The notes below the pieces were generated by a model. That model was not told where the DNA came from and made no database searches. It was given only the letters and a program-made list of their open reading frames with translations. 64,000 bases of DNA from assembly GCA_004295055.1 (NCBI GenBank), contig SHNJ01000007.1, forward strand, positions 73,081 to 137,080, given 5' to 3'. Source of the stretch: Alphaproteobacteria bacterium. Lineage in GTDB: Bacteria > Pseudomonadota > Alphaproteobacteria > SHNJ01. Within the stretch, counting starts at the first letter, position 1, and each line of letters starts with the position of its first letter. This document shows positions 4,910-48,172 of this stretch, piece after piece. Both the position numbers and the translations under genes were made by a program.

Positions 4910-5692
4910 TTATTTTTCAGCGACTGGGACCCTAGCGTTTCTTAATTTTCTAGTAAGGGAAGTAATGGAGACCGAGTTTGCGGCAGGGTGCTGGCGTTTC
5001 TGTACTTCATGCAAAGCGTCTCGGTACGGAATCGCTGTTGGCACAAGTGTTGTACATAAACGTCCGGCATTATCTATCACGCGATTGGCGCTATTGATGT
5101 TTTGATCAAGGTAGCTTGAGTCTCTTGCTTTACCATAAGCCCGCGCAGCGCGAATCGCATCATCTTGCGTCATGTTTTCAGGTACCAAAGTTTGATAAAC
5201 GCGATCCATTAATGGCCAGTTAAAATTTATATGCCCTTGTCTTGTTTGCAATAAAACTTCGCTTTGGCAGGTACGGACCATATGTTCCCCAATCGATGTT
5301 CTTTGATCCGGCGATAAACCCGTATGCCAGAATTGTACAAAATCTGCGGCGTTACGCGGCTGCGCAAAAAATTGCCTCAATGTGGAATGGGAGTTCCATC
5401 CTCTCCCACCCGGGATTAAATAGGCTAAACAAAAAATATCCAATCCAATGGGCGCATCTTGTTGTGCTTTGAAAGTAGCATCTGCGCGGCAGGCATAAGC
5501 AAGCAAAACTAGTGGTGAAACAGTTCCCTTTTGCCTTTCAATGTGGCTGATTAAGGCATCTGTTGCCACATCTACGGTAGTTTCGATAGTTTGCCCATCA
5601 CCGTCAACACAAACAATTTGCGGCTTGCGCGAAACCAACCATGCTTTCTCAGTGCTTTGGTTATAACCAGTGACATCACATATCCAGCTCAT
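4910..5692 (-). CDS. Hypothetical protein (no recognisable family), 260 aa
   Basis: Long ORF with coding-like composition between topA and the sugar cluster; no motif I can assign. Confidence 0.4.
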   Translation of the reverse strand: MSWICDVTGYNQSTEKAWLVSRKPQIVCVDGDGQTIETTVDVATDALISHIERQKGTVSPLVLLAYACRADATFKAQQDAPIGLDIFCLAYLIPGGRGWNSHSTLRQFFAQPRNAADFVQFWHTGLSPDQRTSIGEHMVRTCQSEVLLQTRQGHINFNWPLMDRVYQTLVPENMTQDDAIRAARAYGKARDSSYLDQNINSANRVIDNAGRLCTTLVPTAIPYRDALHEVQKRQHPAANSVSITSLTRKLRNARVPVAEK

Positions 5693-7618: not shown

Positions 7619-8726
7619 GGTGATCCCCATTAATGAATTCCATAATTTGCGAACGGGTAACATTTTCAACATTTTTTCCTTGATGCTGAACGGCGTACCA
7701 GTGGGCCGTTTTTTGAATTGCCTGTTTTGTGGTCCAGCGCGGATTCCAGCCCAGCGTTTTGCGCGCCAGGCGGTTGTCCAACATCAATAATTTCGCTTCG
7801 TATATGCTATTGTCAGGCACATGTTTCCATTCAGCTTTGGACTTTGAACGGGTATTCCATTCTGTAACAAAATGGTCTGCAATCCAACCAACCGTTTGGC
7901 AATCGCGCGCGTCCGGGCCGATATTAAACGATAATAATGGCGATCGGTGTTTGGCGGTTTCCTCTACAATCCGCATGATCGCATAACAAGGTTCCAGCAC
8001 GTGTTGCCAGGGGCGCACCGATTGCGGATGACGCAGAATTAATGGCTGGCCTGTGCCAAAGGCGCGAACCGCATCTGGAATCAGCCTGTCCACCGACCAG
8101 TCGCCACCGCCAATCACATTGCCGGCACGCAATGTGGCGAATGGGATATTTCGCGATTTGAAATAACTATGCCAATAAGACGAGGTTACAATTTCAGCGC
8201 AGGCCTTGCTGGCGCCATACGGTTCGTAACCGCCCAATTTATCATTCTCGCCATAACCGCGCTGAACTTCGATATTTTCGTAAACTTTGTCTGTGGTGAA
8301 AATCAAAACCGCTTGCAGATCTTTGCATTCGCGTGCGGCTTCTAACACATGAATCGTGCCATTGACATTGGTTGAAAATGTATCGACCGGATCTTTGAAG
8401 GCTGGACGGACTAAGGCTTGTGCGCCCAAATGCAGAATAATATGCGGGTTGAATTCAGAAATGGCCTTTTTGACGGCGCCTGCATCACGCAAATCGGCGA
8501 TATGGTGCTTGCCATAATTTTTAATTCCGGAAAGATCATAAAAGCTTGGATCGCTGGATGGGGCTAACGAAAATCCGGCCAACTCGACTTCCATTTCACG
8601 CAGCCAGAAATACAGCCACCCGCCAATAAATCCGGTATGGCCGGTAATTAAAACGCGTTTATTTAGCCAGAAATTTTTATCTAAGGGGTGGGGAAGTTGG
8701 GTGGAACGGGAAAGAAAAGAAAACAT
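7611..8726 (-). CDS. rfbG: CDP-glucose 4,6-dehydratase
   Basis: N-terminal FWLNKRVLITGHTGFIGGWL Rossmann motif, YGASKACAE catalytic YxxxK, size and order after rfbF. Confidence 0.85.
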   Translation of the reverse strand: MFSFLSRSTQLPHPLDKNFWLNKRVLITGHTGFIGGWLYFWLREMEVELAGFSLAPSSDPSFYDLSGIKNYGKHHIADLRDAGAVKKAISEFNPHIILHLGAQALVRPAFKDPVDTFSTNVNGTIHVLEAARECKDLQAVLIFTTDKVYENIEVQRGYGENDKLGGYEPYGASKACAEIVTSSYWHSYFKSRNIPFATLRAGNVIGGGDWSVDRLIPDAVRAFGTGQPLILRHPQSVRPWQHVLEPCYAIMRIVEETAKHRSPLLSFNIGPDARDCQTVGWIADHFVTEWNTRSKSKAEWKHVPDNSIYEAKLLMLDNRLARKTLGWNPRWTTKQAIQKTAHWYAVQHQGKNVENVTRSQIMEFINGDHHG

Positions 8727-15865: not shown

Positions 15866-16321
15866 ATGTTTATGATGACCGCAAAACCGCAAACCGCTGT
15901 AATGACCTTGGCTCCGGATTACAAACCATCGACCAAGGAAGAATATATGTGTCCGGCGCATTTGGAATATTTCCGCCGCAAGTTGATCGCGTGGAAAGAG
16001 GAAATTTTGCGCGAATCAAAACAGACTCTGCATCATATTCAGGAAGAAAGTTTACAGCAGCCGGATATTACCGACCGCGCTTCGCTGGAAACCGATATGG
16101 CGCTGGAATTGCGCACCCGCGATCGCGAACGCAAGCTGATTTCTAAAATCGATGCGGCGATGGAGCGTATCGAGCAGGGCGAATATGGCTATTGCGAAGA
16201 AACCGGTGCGCCAATCGGCTTGGCCCGACTAGAGGCTCGTCCGATAGCCACCTTGTGCCTTGAAGCGCAAGAGAGTCACGAGAAATACGAACGTACCCAT
16301 CGCGACGAAGATAAAGAATAA
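15866..16321 (+). CDS. dksA: DksA/TraR-family RNA-polymerase-binding transcription factor
   Basis: Coiled-coil plus C-terminal GEYGYCEETGAPIGLARLEARPIATLCLEAQ DksA finger region. Confidence 0.8.
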   Translation: MFMMTAKPQTAVMTLAPDYKPSTKEEYMCPAHLEYFRRKLIAWKEEILRESKQTLHHIQEESLQQPDITDRASLETDMALELRTRDRERKLISKIDAAMERIEQGEYGYCEETGAPIGLARLEARPIATLCLEAQESHEKYERTHRDEDKE

Positions 16322-16349
16322 TTCTTATATATTCAAGAAAAGTGCCAGG

Positions 16350-18902
16350 TTATGCGTTTGGCAATAGATGCTTGTTGAGGATTTTCTCTACGGTGGCTAG
16401 TTGCACTGGCTTGCTGATGTAATCATCCATTCCGGCATTCAGGGATTTTTCGCGATCGCCTTCTAATGCATCTGCGGTTAAGGCAATAATTGGGTGACGT
16501 TTAGATTGATTTTCCCTTTCTTTCGATCGGATAAGGTTCGTGGCCTGAAAGCCATCCATTTCCGGCATATGAAAATCCATAAAAATTAAATAATAATCTT
16601 TTTTCAGAAACATATCGACCGCTTCGACGCCATTGCTAGCCACATCGGTATTGCATCCGAATTTGGCCAGTACGCTTCGCATCAGCATTTGATTGATGGC
16701 CATGTCCTCGACTACCAGAATATTGCGATTCTGAAATTGGAGAATGTTGTTTTTGCGTTTTTCAGAAAGACGTGGATCCTGAAAAATGCTTTTAATAAAA
16801 TTACGTGTGATGAAATCAGTTGGTTTATTGCTGCTGATTCTGTCCCAAATTAAAATAATGGTTTGCTGAATTTCGGTGGGGTAATAAGGTTTAGTTAACA
16901 TTCCGGCAAATCCGATGGATGACAATTCCTGTTGATTTCCAGCATAAAGATGGGAAGTTAATAGAATTAAGGCTGTATTTTTGATTTTAGGGTTGGCTTT
17001 TATTCTTTGGGCAAGGGTTTTTCCGTCCTGATCCGGCATACGGTAATCTAGAAGGGCAATGTGATATGGCTCGCCTTTGTCCGCCATTGTTATAAGTTCT
17101 TGATAAGCGGCTTCGGAACTATTAACCGCATTGTGGAAAATATTCCAGTTATGACAATAGGCCGCTAAAATATCCGCACTAACAGGATAATCGTCGACAA
17201 TTAGTAAGCGTACAGAAGATATATCTTTTTTCTCCAGTATGAAACCGCTGGTTTCCTTGGCGCCAGGCGCGTTGCTGGCTATGGTAAATGGGATAGTAAG
17301 ACTAAAAGTGGATCCTTCTCCGAATCTGCTGTTTGCAACAATATCGCCACCCATCATCTCGGTTAATTTCTTGCAAATGGTTAACCCCAAACCACTTCCA
17401 CCAAACCGGCGGGTGGTAGATGCCTCGGCTTGGCTGAAAACAGTAAAAATATGGTCTATTTTATCTGGTGAAATGCCGATACCGCTGTCTTTAATTTCAA
17501 AAGTGATAGAGACTTTTTCCTGATCAATGGATTTTGTTTTTATTTCCAATAAAACATAACCCTCCAAGGTAAATTTCAATGCATTACCGAGCAGGTTGAG
17601 CAGTATTTGCCTGACGCGTACAGGGTCGCCAATCAAATTTTCAGGAATCTCGTTGCTGGCATACATTAATAATTCAAGATTCTTTTCTTTGGCCGTAACA
17701 GCCAAAAGATCCATGCATTCTTCAATGATTTTGGATAGGCTGAATGGAATGGATTCTAAGGTAAATTTACCGGCTTCGATTTTGGTAAAATCCATAATAT
17801 CATTGATTAATGTAAGCAAGGAATCGCCGGACCGGCCGACTATTTCCGCCCAGCGCCGCTGTTCTTCGTCCAAATCGCTGTCTAGGAGTAAAGAAGTCAT
17901 GCCTATGACAGCATTCATTGGCGTTCGTATTTCATGGCTCATATTGGCTAGAAATTCGGATTTCGCCGCGCTTGCTTTTAATAATAAGGTATTGGTGGCA
18001 GCCAGTGTTCTGACCGTTTGGTATAACATTATTAGAATAGCAGTGACGTAGCAGATCAAGACTAAAGATAGTAGAAATAAACCAATATTATAAAATACTT
18101 CTGCATTGCGGGCAATGTCCGATCTTTGTGCAATTAGAGAGTTTAGTTCATTCAATAAGTCCTTATTTTCTGGAGCTAATAATTGTTTGGTCAAGTGCAG
18201 AACATCCACATGAGCATTAAGAATAATTCTGATATGTTTTGCCATATATTCCAAACTTTTCTGGTCATCGACAGATAAGCGATAAGGAAAGTGGTCTATA
18301 TTTTTAAGCGCCTGCTCTACATCGAGTCTGCTTTGCTCTTCCCCATCAATGAGGAATAGTAAAGTTGCCTGGTATAGCGCATCGATTTGAAACGCGGCGT
18401 TATGCTGGTTCTTTTTATGTAGGGCCACATCAAGTTCTTGATATATCGTGGGCATATATTTGGCGGAGTTGCGCAGAATGGCATTTTTCGCCTTGAATTC
18501 TTCTAAGGTAGCTTTGCGGACATTATTAAATTCAATATATTTTTCAATGCCGGATTTTATAGACTGTCCAATAATCTGATATTGGCGAGAGTTATATGGA
18601 GATGGGAGAAGAAAGGAAGCGGATATTTGGTTGGTGGTCTCGATTTCTTCTTGAACGACCAGTGATGTTTCATTAATTGCCTGGGATAGGTGTACTAAAC
18701 TATCATAGTTATTCAATAGATTGTTCTTTGCCAATAAAATATTTTCATTCAACTCCGAATTCAAGCTTCGTAGAGTTAGCAACTCATTAAATATGGCAGA
18801 GTAAATATTTCTGGATGACCAATAAGATTGGTAGAAAAAGAAGCAGACCCCGGCGGCCAGGATTGAAATGAAGAAAAAATGCCTTTGAAGGGAATGTTTC
18901 AT
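16350..18902 (-). CDS. Hybrid sensor histidine kinase with periplasmic sensor domain (2 TM), HisKA/HATPase core and two C-terminal receiver domains
   Basis: H-box [21 protein letters not shown]-box motifs, two REC domains ([14 protein letters not shown]... and [13 protein letters not shown]...DFHMPEMDG); AT-rich codon usage. Confidence 0.85.
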
Positions 18903-18904
18903 GA

Positions 18905-19867
18905 CTACTCTGGGACAGGCAATGTGCCAGTTAAAGTTTTAAGGAATTCAACCAGCTTGTGGCGTTCATCAGCCGATAAGGTGCGGCCCAGTTGGTATTT
19001 GGCCATAATATCGACCGCTTCTTCCAAGGTTTTAGCGGTACCATCGTGAAAATAAGGCGCCGTTTTATTTACATTGCGCAGTGATGGAACTTTAAATACA
19101 TATCGATCTTCTTCTCTATGAGTAACGTTAAAGCGTCCATTATCTTCCTGCGTTAAATTTCCACGATCTTTGAAGTAATCACCAACAATGCCGAATTTCT
19201 GGAACATATTGCCGCCGACATTTTCCCCCTGATGGCATGAAGAACATCCCAAATCTTTGAACAATTTATATCCCGCCTTGGCATCTGCAGAGATTGCAAG
19301 TTTCTTGCCCGTTAAGTATTGATCAAATGGCGAATTAATAGGAATAAGGGTGCGTTCGTAATTGGCGATAGCATCTTTGATATTCTTTTCTGTCGGGGGA
19401 GATTTATAAACTTCTCGGAATGCATCGGCATATTCCGGTATTGTTTTCAGCTTGGCAATAATATCGGGCCAAGTATTGCCCATTTCGTCTGGATTTAAAA
19501 TCGGCCCATTAATTTGTTCTTCTAAAGTCGCCGCGCGGCCGTCCCAGAATTGCGCTAAATTAAGTGCGCTGCCCCAAATCGTAGGTACATTGATAAGCAG
19601 GTTTTTTCCGCTTACGCCTTGGATCGGATAAGGTGCATTTAAAGCGCCGCTATTTGCGATATCGTGACAAGAGGAGCAAGAAAGTTTATCGTTCTTGGAC
19701 AGCCTTGGGTCATGGAATAACTTCTGGCCCAATTTTGCACGTCCATGATCCAGTCCTTTTATGGATGTGACGGGTTGAATAGGTTCATTGCTATAAGACG
19801 TGTGATCCAAACCCATGGCGCAGGAAGGAAACAATAAAAGACAAAGAATAAAGTAAATATAGCGCAT
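18905..19867 (-). CDS. Di-heme cytochrome c peroxidase (CCP/MauG family), secreted
   Basis: Signal peptide; two CXXCH motifs (CSSCHD, CSSCHQG), conserved FWDGRA and PYFHDG; stop overlaps the kinase start (ATGA). Confidence 0.85.
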
Positions 19868-19895
19868 TATTTCAACAGGTTTGTTACAGGGAAAA

Positions 19896-20237
19896 TCATT
19901 CTGAGTTGTTGGTGCTGAGTAAGGCGGATTTAACCAGGCCGTATTCTTGTTCTAATAAACGGAGAATTTTTTGCTTTTCCTCCGGGCTGGTCATGTACTG
20001 ATCTTGCGCATTTTTGCATATATCTGCCAGTTTCTCAGCGCCAAGATTGAGGCTGATGCCTTTCCATGCGTGCGCATGGCGTTTCCATTGTTCGGCGTCA
20101 TTTGGGCCTGCAGTTTGCTGCAGATGACTTAGGCATTCTTCCGACGAATCTAGAAAAACATTGAACAATTGCTTTTCCAAATCGATATCGCCACCGGTTA
20201 ATTCCCTAAGATTGGATAAATTCAGAATTTGATTCAT
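19896..20237 (-). CDS. Histidine phosphotransfer (Hpt) domain protein
   Basis: HAHAWKGISLNLGAEKL matches the Hpt H-x-x-KG-S/A signature; 113 aa. Confidence 0.7.
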   Translation of the reverse strand: MNQILNLSNLRELTGGDIDLEKQLFNVFLDSSEECLSHLQQTAGPNDAEQWKRHAHAWKGISLNLGAEKLADICKNAQDQYMTSPEEKQKILRLLEQEYGLVKSALLSTNNSE

Positions 20238-21241
20238 GAATTTCCCTTTGCCTCTTGGCGGGTGTTTTTGTTCGCCGCCAAATACCGATTAACATAAGAC
20301 AATATTTTTTGTTTGCTAAAAGGCTTGACCACAAAACCTTTGACGTTGTTTTTACGGGCAATTTCCACATCATCGACCGAATGATGGGCGGTGACCATTA
20401 TTAAATGCGCGTTGTTGTCTAATTGCTCAATTTTCTGCGCCAGTTCATGTCCGCTGCCGTCTGGCAATTCAATATCGATGAATGCTATATCTGGCACTAT
20501 TTCCAGGTATAAGCGCCATGCTTCCTCTAATGTTCCTGCGGTGTTTACTTGGAATTTATAACCAAGAATTCCGTACAGCAACTGTTGAGAGAATAATTGG
20601 TCTTCCACAATTAATATGCGTATGTGCTGGCGCCCGATCCGCTGCAATTTGGCACTCATAAAATGCTCTATTTGCTGATCGGTGTGATGAAGACTGGCTT
20701 GGGTAATGGCGCGAGATGTTTTTTTCATGGGGTCTATGGAGGTAAGTTTTGTGGGGATGGATGCTGGTTTGGTATCGATGTCAACTAATTTTGCGGAGTC
20801 GGTTATCTGCTTATTCGGTTCTTCGGGTGAAATGGGAATCGGAAGATCCAGGTCGACTTTCAAAAATTTTTTAAGGAATAGGCTTAGTTCATCGGCCATC
20901 AACTGAGCATCGAAATAGGTAAGAACATCGTCGGTTGTTTTTTCAAACTCCGGTTTCAACATATGTGGGATGATAATGGCTCTTAATTTTTCATAAATAC
21001 GTTTTGGCATGCCGCACCAGGCCAAGTATACATCCCCATTTTCCATGAAAAAAATGCGCGCATCCACGGCGCTATGCATGGCTTGTTTTAAGGTGATCAC
21101 AAATTGATCTTGCGGTATGCTGGTTAGGTATTGTGTCCGAATATTCACAATACTCCACGCGCTGGTATGATTGATATTGATTTCTCTAATCAGTTCAATC
21201 AGCGCTTGCTCGGCCTCATGTTCTGTAATTCCAATCAGCAT
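20234..21241 (-). CDS. Response regulator with C-terminal receiver domain and uncharacterised about 200-aa N-terminal domain
   Basis: C-terminal REC (IRILIVEDQLFS...IDIELPDGSG...MVTAHH...KPF); no family recognised in the N-terminal part; stop overlaps the Hpt start. Confidence 0.75.
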   Translation of the reverse strand: MLIGITEHEAEQALIELIREININHTSAWSIVNIRTQYLTSIPQDQFVITLKQAMHSAVDARIFFMENGDVYLAWCGMPKRIYEKLRAIIIPHMLKPEFEKTTDDVLTYFDAQLMADELSLFLKKFLKVDLDLPIPISPEEPNKQITDSAKLVDIDTKPASIPTKLTSIDPMKKTSRAITQASLHHTDQQIEHFMSAKLQRIGRQHIRILIVEDQLFSQQLLYGILGYKFQVNTAGTLEEAWRLYLEIVPDIAFIDIELPDGSGHELAQKIEQLDNNAHLIMVTAHHSVDDVEIARKNNVKGFVVKPFSKQKILSYVNRYLAANKNTRQEAKGNS

Positions 21242-21409
21242 ATGGGCGCACTATAATTTTAGAAGAAGTAAAGGTTCCACTCTTTTATCATATTCTTTCA
21301 TGGCTAACATCTTACTAAAGGATGCGCGAATAGAAAGAAAATATACAACTATATGGTGTATAAGTCTTGGTCCATACATGGGTAAGAAAATACAATTGTA
21401 TTTCATACA

Positions 21410-21448
21410 AAGAAAAATGACCGGTTTAATCCGGTCATAAGTTTTTTT
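21410..21448. terminator. Bidirectional rho-independent terminator (ATGACCGG-TTTAAT-CCGGTCAT flanked by A-run and T-run)
   Basis: Perfect 8-bp stem with TTTTTTT on the plus strand and TTTTTCTTT on the minus strand; lies between the flgH 3' end and the phosphorelay operon. Confidence 0.55.
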
Positions 21449-21469: not shown

Positions 21470-22243
21470 TTAGAATGGCAACAAAATATCCATTACCTGA
21501 CTGCCATAGCGCGGCTGCTGCACATCGCTGAGCACGCCGCGGCCGCCATAAGAAATTCTGGCCTCGGCGATTTTGTCGGAGGTAATCGAGTTAACGGAAC
21601 TGATATCGGCCGGGCGAATAATGCCGCTAACGGTCAATTCACGTAATTCATGATTCACGCGAATCTCTTGTTTGCCAAGAATTACTAAGTTGCCATTAGG
21701 CAATACTTGAGTCACCACTGCCGCTACTTTGACATTAATGTCTTCCTTGCGGTCGATCGATGCTTCGCCTTTATTTTTCAAGTCGCTGCTGGTGTTTACT
21801 AAGCTGCTTGGATCAATTGCATTCGGTAATTTTTTGCCCAATTCCGCTTCTAAACCGAATAGACCTGGTACGCCCATGGATTCATCATTTTCGCGTTTGC
21901 GTTCGGTATCGTTATCCAATTTAGCGGAATCCGAAATCTGTACCATGACGGTTAAGATATCTCCGACCCGACCGGCGCGTTGGTCTTTGAAGAAAGATCT
22001 TGATCCCGCACGCCATAAAGAATTCACTTCACGGGTGTCAGGAACGGCCGCTGGCATTGGCATGGTAACGGGGCGATAACCTGCTTGCATGGTTGGATTC
22101 ACCGTGCTGCTTAGGGCAGGGGGCTCGCCTACTTCGGCCAGGCGATCCAAAGTAACGCAGCCAGTCAACAAAAAGCAGGATGCTGTTACTAATAGTACTT
22201 TTGAGTTGCTTAGATGTGATTTTTTCATGATGCTTACTCCCAC
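21470..22243 (-). CDS. flgH: Flagellar L-ring lipoprotein FlgH
   Basis: Lipobox LLTGC, full-length FlgH pattern (GDILTVMV, GNLVILGKQEIRVN). Confidence 0.9.
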   Translation of the reverse strand: MGVSIMKKSHLSNSKVLLVTASCFLLTGCVTLDRLAEVGEPPALSSTVNPTMQAGYRPVTMPMPAAVPDTREVNSLWRAGSRSFFKDQRAGRVGDILTVMVQISDSAKLDNDTERKRENDESMGVPGLFGLEAELGKKLPNAIDPSSLVNTSSDLKNKGEASIDRKEDINVKVAAVVTQVLPNGNLVILGKQEIRVNHELRELTVSGIIRPADISSVNSITSDKIAEARISYGGRGVLSDVQQPRYGSQVMDILLPF

Positions 22244-39951: not shown

Positions 39952-40854
39952 GTGCCTTTCATTCAACATTATATTTTGGATCCGTTGCTGGGCGCACTGG
40001 TAGCGATCTTGCAAATTATATTCTGGATTCTGCCATTCCGCGTATCGTCGGCGATTGGTGGTGGGTTGGCGCGGTTGATTGGCCCCAATCTAGCTATATC
40101 GCGCAAAGCGCAAAAGAATCTGCAATATGTTTGGCCAGATATGCCGCCCGAACGGCAGCAGGAAATAATTACGCGCATGTGGGACAATCTTGGCCGCAAT
40201 TTTGCGGAATATCCAGGTCTGGGCCGATTGCAATTTGGCAATATGATCCATGTGCATGGGGCAGAGGCTGTAAATTCAATTATTGGTAAAAGGCCAATTG
40301 TATTTGCCGCGGCGCATATCGGTAATTGGGAAACTATTCCTTATTTCTGGGCAAAGCAGGGATGGAAAGTCGATATTGTTTATCGCCGTGCGAATAATCG
40401 ATATGTGGATTGGGTGATACAATTTATCCGCTCGCGGACTGGTTTGACTTTTGCGGCAAAGGGAAGAGAAGCATCAAAACAAATTATTCAATCTTTATCA
40501 AAATCGTCCAGTGTTGCTCTGCTAATGGATCAGCGGATGAGCGATGGTGAGGAAATTGACTTCCTGGGTAAACCCGCAATGACCGGAACCGGGTGGATTA
40601 AGTTGGTATTGCGCAACAACGCTGCAATAGTTCCTGTGTATTGCGTCCGGGGCAGGGATCATGATCCATGTAAATTCGATATGATATACGACACACCGAT
40701 TCTGCCGGAACAATTAAACTTGCCGGCGGATTCCGCCGAGGCGGTACGGTTCGTTGCGGCGGTAGTCAATAAAAAATACGGCGAGTGGATTAGCGCTGGT
40801 CGCGGGGCCGACCAGTGGCTTTGGCTGCACCGGCGGTGGGGTCGCCTCGTTTAG
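39952..40854 (+). CDS. Lipid A biosynthesis lauroyl/myristoyl acyltransferase family (LpxL/HtrB-like)
   Basis: LpxL-family pattern (AAAHIGNWE motif region, acyltransferase core); the ORF-track start at 39817 overlaps cckA by 130 nt, so a GTG near 39952 is more plausible. Confidence 0.7.
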   Translation: MPFIQHYILDPLLGALVAILQIIFWILPFRVSSAIGGGLARLIGPNLAISRKAQKNLQYVWPDMPPERQQEIITRMWDNLGRNFAEYPGLGRLQFGNMIHVHGAEAVNSIIGKRPIVFAAAHIGNWETIPYFWAKQGWKVDIVYRRANNRYVDWVIQFIRSRTGLTFAAKGREASKQIIQSLSKSSSVALLMDQRMSDGEEIDFLGKPAMTGTGWIKLVLRNNAAIVPVYCVRGRDHDPCKFDMIYDTPILPEQLNLPADSAEAVRFVAAVVNKKYGEWISAGRGADQWLWLHRRWGRLV

Positions 40855-41509
40855 CGGATTTCTTCTCTGCATGAATTACGCGGAGGCGGTTTAATGCCTC
40901 TTGGCGTCTATCTCTTTGTCCGAGTATTTTATATGTATCCAGTAAAACAAGGCATAGTCTTTTATCGGCTGTTGCTAAAGATCCATGATATTGATCGGCT
41001 GTGCTTCTTAATTTAGCCCCCTGTTTTCCATAAATATATGTTTTTAATAATATGGTTAAGGCATGGCCATCGTTGGGGTCAAGGGCCAATAGATCGAAAC
41101 ATATCGCCTCTGCTTCGCCGAATTTCTGCATTGCAAGCAGCAGGCTGGCTTTTTTGGTTTTAATTTTAACGGGTAATTTGGGATCGTCCTCTGATCTGTT
41201 ATGCGGATGAGCAAGCAATTTATCATATAATTGAAGGCCCTTTGTTCCATAGCCGGTTCTCAATTCATCGTGAGCAGGCCCTAAGTTTTTTAAATGGGAA
41301 CAAGCCATTTGGCAGGCGGTTGCATAAATCAATATAAATTCAAAATCTTCTGCTGATTCAGGAGTGGTTTCATTCGATTCCCCTAAGGCTAATGCATCCT
41401 TTAGGGGCTCTATATTCCACTTACCGTCTTTATTGCGATTGTGTGTTACGCGGAATAATAACTTACGCATTTGTTCGGCCAAAGGATTTGAATTTCTTTT
41501 TTCGCCCAT
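40790..41509 (-). CDS. Hypothetical TPR-like protein in an AT-rich segment
   Basis: Helical-repeat composition; the gene body is visibly AT-rich relative to its neighbours; the 3' end overlaps the lpxL-like 3' end by about 65 nt. Confidence 0.35.
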   Translation of the reverse strand: MGEKRNSNPLAEQMRKLLFRVTHNRNKDGKWNIEPLKDALALGESNETTPESAEDFEFILIYATACQMACSHLKNLGPAHDELRTGYGTKGLQLYDKLLAHPHNRSEDDPKLPVKIKTKKASLLLAMQKFGEAEAICFDLLALDPNDGHALTILLKTYIYGKQGAKLRSTADQYHGSLATADKRLCLVLLDTYKILGQRDRRQEALNRLRVIHAEKKSAKRGDPTAGAAKATGRPRDQR

Positions 41510-47146: not shown

Positions 47147-48172
47147 TTACGCACGGATACGACTTCTGTGACATGCGGCTAATGTACGTACCACATCTGG
47201 AGTTAAGACACCAATTTTCATTTCATGCTTTTCATAACTGAGCGGTTTACCACCAAGCGCTGCCAGAGCATGTTGTAATAATGTATTATCGCTTGCAACC
47301 TTAACATCTATGTTGCCTGCAGGAGGAATGCCCATTTGATGAGCGGCTTCGGCCAATAATATGCGCGCAAGTGCTTCCGGACTTTTTGCATGCTCATGTT
47401 CGATTAATTGGGGGTCGTTTTGGGTAATAGCCAGATTAGCGATATGTAATCCGGCGGCGGCATTAAAGGTAGAATAGCTAGTATAGCCGCTAAGTGTGTT
47501 AGCATGACCATTATCACCAAAAGAAACCGCGATTTCATGGGGCTGCAATACCGATAAGGCAGGCATAGTTTCCAATCTTGTTACATCACCAGACAATCGT
47601 CTATGTTCCATAACTTGGGCACAGGATACGCGCCAACTGCCCATATCTTCCGGAAATTTTGCGCCGACTTTTTCATACATGGTGATTGCGGCTTGATTTA
47701 CTTTATCGACTTCCCATACAATTTTGGAATGACCAGCCTGTTCCGCTAAATTGGCCAAATATTCCATCATAATGCGGCCATAACCATGACCGCGACGAGT
47801 ATGATCGGTAACAATGTCTTCTAAGTATAAATGACGGTTCTTGCCATCATGGCCGGGATAAATGGTAATAACACCAGCTACGGCATTTTGTACCGTCAAA
47901 AAATGCGCGCCCCAAACACCATTCTGAAGGTGGTCGATTAAACGTCTGCGATAGGAAGGTTCTGTGGGAAGAGGAGTGTCGTGTTGTTTGCCTTGTTGAT
48001 CCAGAAGTTCGATCAAACCTTCCAAATGGGCAGGGCTGCCATTGAACGGTTCAATAATACCTGTGCTTCTATCTTTTAATTCAACGGTAACAGGGGTAGT
48101 TGTAATGGGAAGTGCCATGCGCCCTGGAAGAGGCTCAGTAGTCGTAACGGTGGCGGGTACCGTATTAGTCAT
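47147..48172 (-). CDS. GNAT-family N-acetyltransferase with extra N- and C-terminal regions
   Basis: Acetyl-CoA-binding motif RRGHGYGRIMMEYLANLAEQAGHSKI; 12-nt spacing to the downstream deacetylase. Confidence 0.65.
   Translation of the reverse strand: MTNTVPATVTTTEPLPGRMALPITTTPVTVELKDRSTGIIEPFNGSPAHLEGLIELLDQQGKQHDTPLPTEPSYRRRLIDHLQNGVWGAHFLTVQNAVAGVITIYPGHDGKNRHLYLEDIVTDHTRRGHGYGRIMMEYLANLAEQAGHSKIVWEVDKVNQAAITMYEKVGAKFPEDMGSWRVSCAQVMEHRRLSGDVTRLETMPALSVLQPHEIAVSFGDNGHANTLSGYTSYSTFNAAAGLHIANLAITQNDPQLIEHEHAKSPEALARILLAEAAHQMGIPPAGNIDVKVASDNTLLQHALAALGGKPLSYEKHEMKIGVLTPDVVRTLAACHRSRIRA

Follow-up and report, generated by a model that had tools for sequence, protein, structure and literature searches.

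A cytochrome c peroxidase gene as near-obligate partner of DAHL sensor domains, and an inserted four-gene relay in an alphaproteobacterial flagellar cluster

The 64,000-nucleotide stretch of DNA analyzed here (hereafter the window; positions 73,081 to 137,080 of contig SHNJ01000007.1, assembly GCA_004295055.1, Alphaproteobacteria bacterium, GTDB lineage SHNJ01) carries an island of four minus-strand genes between flgH and dksA of a flagellar gene cluster. In operon order, these encode a response regulator (RR), a stand-alone phosphotransfer protein (Hpt), a di-haem cytochrome c peroxidase (CCP), and a hybrid sensor kinase with a DAHL sensor domain. We find that, in the DAHL subfamily sampled here, the CCP is a near-obligate and conserved gene partner of the DAHL domain. 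The reading that we hold to be fairly probable is that the island is an acquired four-gene relay built of two modules, in which the CCP would serve as a haem co-sensor for peroxide or redox state, acting via the DAHL kinase. The phosphorelay itself is of a known kind, while the putative CCP–DAHL sensing pair and the GGDEF-like regulator are new elements, and the general CCP–DAHL pairing is the part most deserving of follow-up.

Pairing of CCP and DAHL genes

Close homologues of the window CCP (46–75% identical) have a gene for a DAHL-type kinase directly downstream in all 7 contexts read, including one (L009; sampled loci are cited by number) in which the kinase is split into two open reading frames (ORFs). 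A scan of metagenome contigs, seeded with an alignment of DAHL domains alone, returned 80 further loci with domains only 20–30% identical to that of the window. Of these loci, 70 have 1 kb or more of sequence upstream, and in 68 of them a same-strand CCP gene directly precedes the DAHL gene; the other 10 extend less far, and a truncated CCP is visible in 8. L129 and L156, one encoding a kinase and one a GGDEF protein, are the only loci with enough upstream sequence and no adjacent CCP.

Each of the 62 full-length proteins, of which 61 stem from these loci and one is the window kinase, matches the Pfam DAHL family, and their outputs include HATPase_c (36), GGDEF (13), EAL (12), Guanylate_cyc (4), SpoIIE (2), and MCPsignal (2). 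For example, L138 and L174 have a CCP gene next to that of a DAHL chemoreceptor (MCP). A partner gene that stays constant while the output class varies is the signature of a sensory subunit, unlike a regulated target gene. Divergence of the CCP is also correlated with divergence of the DAHL domain (r = 0.75, Mantel 0/999), and all-against-all clustering of the flanking ORFs revealed no third conserved gene, such as one for an electron donor, around the pair. Our literature searches found no report of CCP pairing as a general property of DAHL domains, although the original Tlp10 paper may have noted the pairing, and found nothing relevant on the combination of CCPs with sensor kinases or cyclases.

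Two side observations concern these loci. Four of the 62 extracted DAHL ORFs (L095-L174) also match Y1_Tnp, an IS200-like transposase family, which may be an artefact of upstream ORF extension or may reflect real insertions near some loci. In L007 (4718-11446), a gene for a KatG-type catalase-peroxidase (PF00141) is divergent beside an RR–CCP–DAHL kinase operon in which Hpt is fused to the kinase; this fits a peroxide theme and is a single anecdote.

Features of the DAHL-adjacent peroxidases

The window CCP matches CCP_MauG (PF03150) with 179.6 bits against a cutoff of 25.6, and has two CSSCH haem motifs (C64-H68 and C208-H212). Its best solved match is CcpA of S. oneidensis (3o5c; E 2e-77), which aligns over nearly the full length with about half of the aligned residues identical; matches to solved peroxidases range from E 2e-77 to 9e-68 and include P. 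aeruginosa 1eb7 and N. europaea 1iqc (E 2e-74). With the canonical enzymes (1eb7, 1iqc, and 3o5c) it shares the fold family, the CXXCH motifs, the inter-haem Trp (W108), the catalytic Gln and Glu (Q118 and E128), and the Met ligand (M288). Unlike the window protein, the canonical CCPs have a His in the distal loop and no obligate pairing with a sensor gene. Specifically, this loop reads GHGWQKGP in P. aeruginosa 1eb7, GHKWQQGP in N. europaea 1iqc, GHHWQEGP in S. oneidensis 3o5c, and GHKGQFGG in Neisseria 6qkn, whereas the window CCP has GVSGKNLL, with V85 at the position of the distal His.

In resting canonical CCPs, the loop His, which is His71 in P. aeruginosa, ligates and closes the peroxidatic haem. 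We took a census of residues in 68 DAHL-adjacent CCPs, with counts given out of 69. The distal-His column is never His among the 68, being occupied by I, V, G, A, M, or F; the haem motifs and W108 do not vary, and 68/69 retain M288. An aliphatic residue or Ser stands in for the catalytic Glu in 17/69, and the Gln is replaced in 10/69. The missing distal His suggests a permanently open haem, and the DAHL-adjacent CCPs form, as judged from these residues, a distinct His-less clade that keeps both haems. Among solved structures, the second-best relative of the window CCP is chain A of PDB 9qdt (E 1e-75), a 417-aa "probable cytochrome c peroxidase" with an N-terminal extension of ~120 residues, which is also without the distal His (loop GVGGAVGP).

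Hydropathy marks a hydrophobic, signal-like N-terminus in the window CCP (residues 1-22), which fits a predicted signal peptide and is in line with periplasmic export. The public gene call (P0001; 303 aa) starts 17 codons after the ATG at 19867 and omits this N-terminus, and no exact database match to the 320-aa protein was found. Because a c-type cytochrome needs export, we prefer the 320-aa ORF, and the longer version (N-terminal part 19817-19867) appears more plausible than the public call. An earlier reading of the sequence alone (the sequence-only reading) had listed a secreted enzyme as an addition to the operon; the signal-like N-terminus and the CCP assignment are in line with this, but the enzyme is not incidental, being the conserved partner of the DAHL sensor gene.

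Role of the peroxidase and comparison with known systems

A di-haem CCP gene upstream of a gene for a transmembrane DAHL receptor is also known from C. jejuni, as compared here from the literature and not from sequences. There, docA (Cj0020c), which encodes a CCP, lies immediately upstream of docB (Cj0019c), which encodes Tlp10 (PMC3156733); the two genes overlap and are translationally coupled (PMC13462783, July 2026). The definition of the DAHL domain goes back to Tlp10 (PMC9796306). The output of DocA/Tlp10 is a chemoreceptor, whereas that of the window is a hybrid kinase that would act through Hpt on an atypical regulator. The CCPs of C. jejuni make no contribution to resistance to hydrogen peroxide (H2O2), while docA mutants colonize poorly (PMC3156733). 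That DocA signals peroxide availability to Tlp10 is offered as speculation in PMC13462783, where it is also suggested that the C. jejuni CCPs take periplasmic H2O2 as an electron acceptor. The pairing that we describe offers an explanation for the DocA puzzle, i.e. a protein that is needed for gut colonization but not for peroxide resistance.

One alternative is that the CCP works in ordinary detoxification or respiration, either co-expressed with the relay or regulated as its target, and that the DAHL domain senses small molecules directly, without help from the CCP. The retention of both haems and of W108, Q118, E128, and M288, together with the close matches to 3o5c and 1iqc, is in keeping with this, as are the suggested use of H2O2 as an electron acceptor in C. 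jejuni (PMC13462783) and the several ligand classes, malate included, that the Tlp10 DAHL domain is reported to detect (summarized in PMC9796306). Yet the pairing holds in 68/70 loci whatever the output, including chemoreceptors, GGDEF/EAL proteins, cyclases, and SpoIIE proteins, which do not control the transcription of a neighbouring gene. The loss of the catalytic Glu in 17/69 partner CCPs, the lack of a distal His in all of them, and the absence of a DocA contribution to H2O2 resistance (PMC3156733) also argue against it, and we regard this alternative as unlikely.

A second alternative is that the CCP acts like MauG or MbnH, using H2O2 to drive a covalent modification of its DAHL partner, either as maturation or as an irreversible switch. 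PF03150 includes MauG, an enzyme that oxidizes a partner protein, and MauG chains are detectable as matches to the window CCP (E ~1e-19 to 1e-20). The gene coupling is tight, and the DAHL alignment has conserved polar or aromatic residues: Y66 is nearly invariant, and D67, K137, N140, N145, and H223 are invariant. Against this, the invariant DAHL columns showed neither Cys nor Trp, the window CCP resembles true peroxidases (E 1e-77) much more strongly than MauG (E 1e-20), and the Met ligand M288 is kept, as in the solved peroxidases aligned; MauG has a Tyr ligand in place of this Met. A modifying role of this kind is, in our judgement, a slim prospect.

The CCP–DAHL pair probably forms a periplasmic peroxide or redox sensor. 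In the mechanism that we propose, the CCP would react with periplasmic H2O2, or report a periplasmic redox or ligand state, and the DAHL domain would read the state of the CCP through protein contact and set autophosphorylation at H323 of the kinase. The phosphoryl group would then pass from H323 to D619 or D776, on to H56 of Hpt, and finally to D256 of the regulator, whose N-terminal domain would alter a binding interaction, protein or nucleotide binding being likelier than DNA binding. Gene and motif content, the insertion, the recurring cassette, the near-universal gene pairing, and the fold of the regulator domain are observed; the physical coupling of CCP and DAHL, the peroxide signal, the direction of regulation, and the output are the elements that we infer.

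Several points weigh against this proposal. The co-divergence of CCP and DAHL is weak among distant pairs (r = 0.26), and shared phylogeny alone would give a correlation. A single motif, [FY]K[AS]xNA[IL][LY][RK]N, served as the seed of the DAHL scan, which covers a subfamily that is maybe not all of PF19443; two of its loci are without a CCP. The window CCP keeps its catalytic residues, matches real peroxidases strongly, and may be a simple enzyme. Several small ligands are reportedly detected by the DAHL domain of Tlp10, in a summary that leaves DocA unmentioned (PMC9796306). Finally, the nature of the signal, whether H2O2, the redox state of an electron-donor pool, or another haem ligand, is a guess.

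Peroxide sensing outside the cytoplasm is poorly understood, and the known sensors OxyR and PerR are cytoplasmic. The pairing of CCP and DAHL across output classes points to a self-contained periplasmic haem sensor. More generally, DAHL domains could be dedicated transmembrane receivers for the His-less CCP clade, together making up a widespread periplasmic H2O2 or redox module that feeds all major outputs (histidine kinases, cyclic di-GMP enzymes, nucleotide cyclases, PP2C phosphatases, and chemoreceptors), with DocA/Tlp10 and the window operon as two instances. Such a module, if real, would represent a new type of haem-based sensing outside the cytoplasm; on this wider proposal we see the chances as evenly balanced.

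Control of a hybrid kinase by a separate periplasmic partner is known from TorT-TorS-TorR of E. coli, which responds to trimethylamine N-oxide, and from LuxP-LuxQ-LuxU-LuxO of Vibrio. TorT and LuxP have the fold of periplasmic binding proteins and each bind a small molecule, the periplasmic sensor domain of TorS is all-helical, LuxU is a stand-alone Hpt, and TorR and LuxO are DNA-binding. The window has in common with these systems a predicted His-Asp-His-Asp relay and a proposed periplasmic partner protein, but its partner is a haem enzyme and its regulator has a degenerate GGDEF-like domain. In the H-NOX/HnoK and NosP/NahK systems, a stand-alone haem protein encoded beside kinases or cyclic di-GMP (c-di-GMP) enzymes is the ligand-sensing subunit; these sensors are mostly cytoplasmic, carry a single haem b, and sense nitric oxide, and some of the hybrid kinases feed a separate Hpt. 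As with CCP and DAHL, a single sensor family serves several classes of output. Unlike these systems, the window has a di-haem c peroxidase, predicted to be periplasmic, as the partner, and a dedicated transmembrane domain as the receiver.

Regulator, Hpt, and recurrence of the cassette

The RR is a member of a rare family, characterized by a degenerate GGDEF-like domain at the N-terminus and by Hpt as an obligate partner. Some 25 full-length homologues came out of a word-indexed search across 5.8 billion proteins; among 1.84 billion representatives, a profile search matched 186 proteins, most of them 270–330 aa long with the domain N-terminal. A C-terminal receiver is present in 8 of 10 sampled members, the other two being ~150-aa proteins or fragments, and an Hpt gene follows the RR-family gene in 7/7 contexts read.

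The N-terminal domain was modelled separately, as the receiver would dominate a fold search of the whole protein, and the model is confident (pLDDT 88, pTM 0.83). From this model, the domain is best described as a degenerate GGDEF-like binding domain. It has no match to Pfam GGDEF (PF00990), reads MENGDV at the GGDEF site, and is without the RxxD I-site. Binding of c-di-GMP at an I-site was considered and rejected at the sequence level, given that RxxD is absent at the expected position. Neither Pfam nor the fold search revealed a recognizable DNA-binding or motility output domain in the regulator.

The hybrid kinase that accompanies the RR–Hpt pair varies. It is a DAHL kinase in the window, L004, and L010, while in L093 (7001-11498) the pair lies upstream of a 1010-aa hybrid kinase whose sensor part consists of 4Fe-4S ferredoxin and a domain like the large subunit of Fe-only hydrogenase, so that here the RR–Hpt output pair is joined to another redox-type sensor. 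The kinases of L094 and L175 are without a recognized sensor domain or a Pfam-detected membrane domain, and L176 has the RR–Hpt pair without an adjacent hybrid kinase. A comparable arrangement is the HptB relay of P. aeruginosa, in which several hybrid kinases act through HptB on HsbR, a non-DNA-binding protein that affects motility and biofilm. Both have a stand-alone Hpt, and the RR–Hpt pair of the window is likewise combined with different hybrid kinases. The output of HsbR is a phosphatase/kinase, in contrast to the GGDEF-like N-terminal domain found here, and no homology between the output domains was found.

The full gene order RR–Hpt–CCP–DAHL kinase recurs in other genomes, namely in a sister lineage of the window (below) and in L010/L011, where it lies between RND efflux genes and a FIST/hybrid-kinase pair. 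Taken together with the separate recurrence of each pair, the sequences indicate a cassette of two separately conserved modules, CCP–DAHL kinase and Hpt–RR.

Insertion at the flgH–dksA junction

A scan anchored on FlgI of 185,579 species genomes (one per species) returned 80 loci, which were annotated by tblastn with the window proteins. The window comes from the metagenome-assembled genome of an uncultured alphaproteobacterium, and its nearest named FlgI relatives are Kiloniellaceae, Pelagibius, and Rhodospirillaceae, at ~70% identity. Among the 80 loci, the only carrier of the island is L013, which belongs to the same sister lineage as L004 (FlgI 96% identical), and in 78, all from other lineages, the island has no counterpart. 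In the sister lineage (L004 and L013), the four genes occupy the same flgH–dksA junction. In ~45 loci of Rhodospirillales-like relatives (Kiloniellaceae, Pelagibius, Nisaea, Thalassospira, and others), flgH directly adjoins dksA, and the next relative, L014 (FlgI 84%, DksA 92%, FlgH 81%), has a single haem-oxygenase gene between them.

The edges of the island can be read from the same comparisons. Homology between the window and L014 ends right after the flgH hairpin, and this hairpin is kept in the island-free L014 with compensatory stem changes (GACCGG/GGCCGG). It marks the left edge of the insertion and lies outside the island. The sequence-only reading had a bidirectional terminator separating the island from flgH; the structure is indeed flagged on both strands, but it belongs to flgH. 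At the other end, L014 has a G+C-rich hairpin 3' of dksA (8620-8660) that is missing in the window and L004, where the stops of dksA and the kinase are 28 and 11 bp apart, respectively, with no hairpin in either.

The window and L004 can be aligned along the entire 175-bp region upstream of the regulator gene. Since the junction and this intergenic region are homologous in both carriers, the insertion predates the split of the two lineages. The island proteins of the window and the sister lineage are 69–75% identical, as against 89–96% for most flanking proteins and 78% for FlgA. These comparisons indicate one insertion in the common ancestor of the window lineage and its sister, followed by divergence, and by the same reckoning the acquisition is not recent. 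The horizontal acquisition put forward by the sequence-only reading is thereby upheld, on the grounds of synteny, outgroups without the island, and low G+C content (GC) in both carrier lineages. Relatives holding the same genes with native composition were not found: the sister genes are also AT-rich, and the outgroups are without the island. Counting against an acquisition, the island has no mobility genes, tRNA, or flanking repeats to show the route of insertion. Specifically, the Pfam scan found no integrase or transposase among the four genes, no tRNA occurs anywhere in the 64-kb window, no Rfam family marks the island, and the only flanking repeats are short and at chance level.

The island genes have a GC of 0.400–0.436, compared with 0.480 ± 0.023 in the 61 other ORFs of the window, and rank 1, 2, 5, and 7 of 65 ORFs from the lowest; an equally low run of four genes occurs in 0.2% of gene-order permutations (P ~ 0.002). 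By contrast, GC at third codon positions (GC3) is 0.41–0.46 vs 0.50 ± 0.047 elsewhere (z −0.8 to −2.0); 30% of permutations of the window yield four consecutive genes as low (P ~ 0.30), which is not significant. Much of the deficit lies at codon positions 1-2 and so reflects amino-acid composition. The AT-richness seen by the sequence-only reading thus holds for total GC and is weak for the A/T third positions that it had stressed. The sister-lineage island is likewise AT-rich (GC 0.43 vs 0.494 ± 0.025), the L010 cassette has a GC3 of 0.57–0.58 vs 0.60–0.75 in its neighbours, and the GC3 dip is clearer in L004 and L010 than in the window. Three other window ORFs, 4910-5692 (-), 40790-41509 (-), and 47147-48172 (-), have GC3 values of 0.395, 0.379, and 0.363, at or below that of the island, so low GC3 is not unique to it. 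Composition by itself would not establish a foreign origin, and, as GC3 alone is not significant, the case for insertion rests on synteny.

If the four genes were instead ancestral to the flagellar cluster and lost repeatedly, their AT-richness would come from amino-acid composition and low expression. The GC3 result and the deficit at codon positions 1-2 are compatible with this, and so are the sister-lineage genes at the same place, the absent mobility signatures, and an RR–Hpt–kinase set ~2-4 kb downstream of flgH in another alphaproteobacterium (L094). Such a history would require many independent and precise losses, given the ~45 relatives in which flgH adjoins dksA and a nearest outgroup with a different gene there; moreover, the same cassette occurs in the unrelated context of L010, with GC3 again below its neighbours. 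We consider an ancestral origin very improbable and retain the acquisition.

The junction holds other cargo elsewhere: haem oxygenase, TerC, LysE+LysR, HpcH aldolase, CN hydrolase, and unknown genes (Table 1). The flgH–dksA junction of related flagellar clusters behaves as a recurrent, permissive insertion site between two convergent terminators. For annotation, this means that location at this junction in Rhodospirillales-type clusters is no sign of flagellar function.

Relation to motility

Given its location, the relay could be a dedicated flagellar input, in which the GGDEF-like domain would bind the motor, the switch, or a flagellar regulator, and peroxide would modulate swimming. This option is compatible with the sensing role that we favour for the CCP–DAHL pair and adds a specific output to it. 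In two lineages the operon is embedded in the flagellar cluster, a second RR–Hpt–kinase set is found near flgFGAH in L094, and two DAHL partners are chemoreceptors. In addition, the regulator has no DNA-binding domain, and degenerate GGDEF domains (BcsE, LapD, and PelD) act by binding. Set against these are the unrelated cargo at the flgH–dksA junction in at least 5 other lineages, the location of other RR-family genes beside tRNA synthetase, fpg, metK, or Fic genes and without flagellar neighbours, and the lack of a flagellar sigma-54 or sigma-70 promoter consensus upstream of the operon. A dedicated flagellar output is therefore doubtful in our view. The sequence-only reading had raised a signalling input into motility, and position is what speaks for it; the junction holds unrelated cargo in other lineages, and the regulator has no recognizable motility output.

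In L094 (1-8237), a hybrid kinase, an RR-family regulator, and an Hpt are encoded ~2-4 kb downstream of flgF-flgG-flgA-flgH, with a 2OG-Fe oxygenase, an HTH/Gp49 toxin-antitoxin-like pair, and a SpoU methylase in between. This arrangement is a hint of a flagellar link, no more.

Organization of the locus

The ORF list and Pfam scan confirm four minus-strand genes with the functions proposed by the sequence-only reading (Table 1). As that reading also had it, RR and Hpt overlap by an ATGA at 20234-20237, where the Hpt ATG overlaps the RR stop, and the island ends convergent with dksA. The second ATGA overlap that it placed at 18902-18905 is in fact a 2-nt gap between CCP and kinase (TAG-tc-ATG), and Hpt and CCP are separated by 28 nt. 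The promoter scan gave no match to a minus-strand sigma-70 consensus upstream of the operon, and the terminator scan found no terminator-like site between dksA and the kinase. A sigma-54-like GG-N10-GC promoter upstream of the operon was also considered; this reading failed, and L004 does not share the site.

Table 1. Features of the island, its flanks, and the cargo of the same junction elsewhere (positions in the 64,000-nt window unless a locus is named)
Feature	Position	Strand	Details
Response regulator (RR)	20234..21241	-	335 aa; Pfam Response_reg C-terminal; first ~200 aa without Pfam family
RR N-terminal domain, degenerate GGDEF-like (modelled)	20846-21241	-	residues 1-132; disordered linker after domain
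RR receiver	20291-20617	-	residues 209-317; D214, D256, T284, K306
Hpt, stand-alone phosphotransfer protein	19896..20237	-	113 aa; Pfam Hpt 42.4 bits, cutoff 24.6; HAWKG, H56
Di-haem cytochrome c peroxidase (CCP), predicted secreted	18905..19867	-	320 aa; CCP_MauG + Cytochrom_C
Hybrid sensor kinase	16350..18902	-	850 aa; DAHL + HisKA + HATPase_c + 2x Response_reg
Kinase, first transmembrane-like segment	18822-18890	-	residues 5-27 (hydropathy)
Kinase DAHL domain, predicted periplasmic	18102-18803	-	residues 34-267; Pfam PF19443 77.1 bits, cutoff 38
Kinase, second transmembrane-like segment	18003-18107	-	residues 266-300 (hydropathy)
Kinase HisKA	17769-17966	-	H-box SHEIRTP, H323
Kinase HATPase_c	17283-17630	-	N/G boxes NALKF, DSGIG, GSGLGL
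Kinase receiver 1	~16848-17210	-	D619
Kinase receiver 2	16380-16721	-	D776
Operon upstream intergenic region, presumed promoter	21242..21416	-	175 bp; inside inserted DNA
flgH intrinsic terminator hairpin	21417..21438	both	A-run before, T-run after; terminator-like on both strands
Spacer between dksA stop and kinase stop (convergent)	16322..16349		28 bp; right edge of insertion
flgH	21470-22243	-	flank of island
dksA	15866-16321	+	flank, convergent with kinase; fliX and flgI beyond
Junction cargo, haem oxygenase	L014 7806-8465	-
Junction cargo, TerC	L089 6220-6843
Junction cargo, LysE+LysR	L092 6292-7893
Junction cargo, HpcH aldolase	L091 7011-7817
Junction cargo, CN hydrolase	L078 7842-8558
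Junction cargo, unknown genes	L046 2900-8690		5.8 kb; without Pfam matches

A motif search found the phospho-acceptor set intact throughout, i.e. H323, D619, and D776 of the kinase, H56 of Hpt, and D256 of the regulator. By sequence, the hybrid kinase, Hpt, and regulator make up a predicted multi-step His-Asp-His-Asp phosphorelay, and the complete relay in a tight operon described by the sequence-only reading is present in every motif. Within the regulator, the receiver residues D214, D256, T284, and K306 are conserved across the alignment of the RR family.

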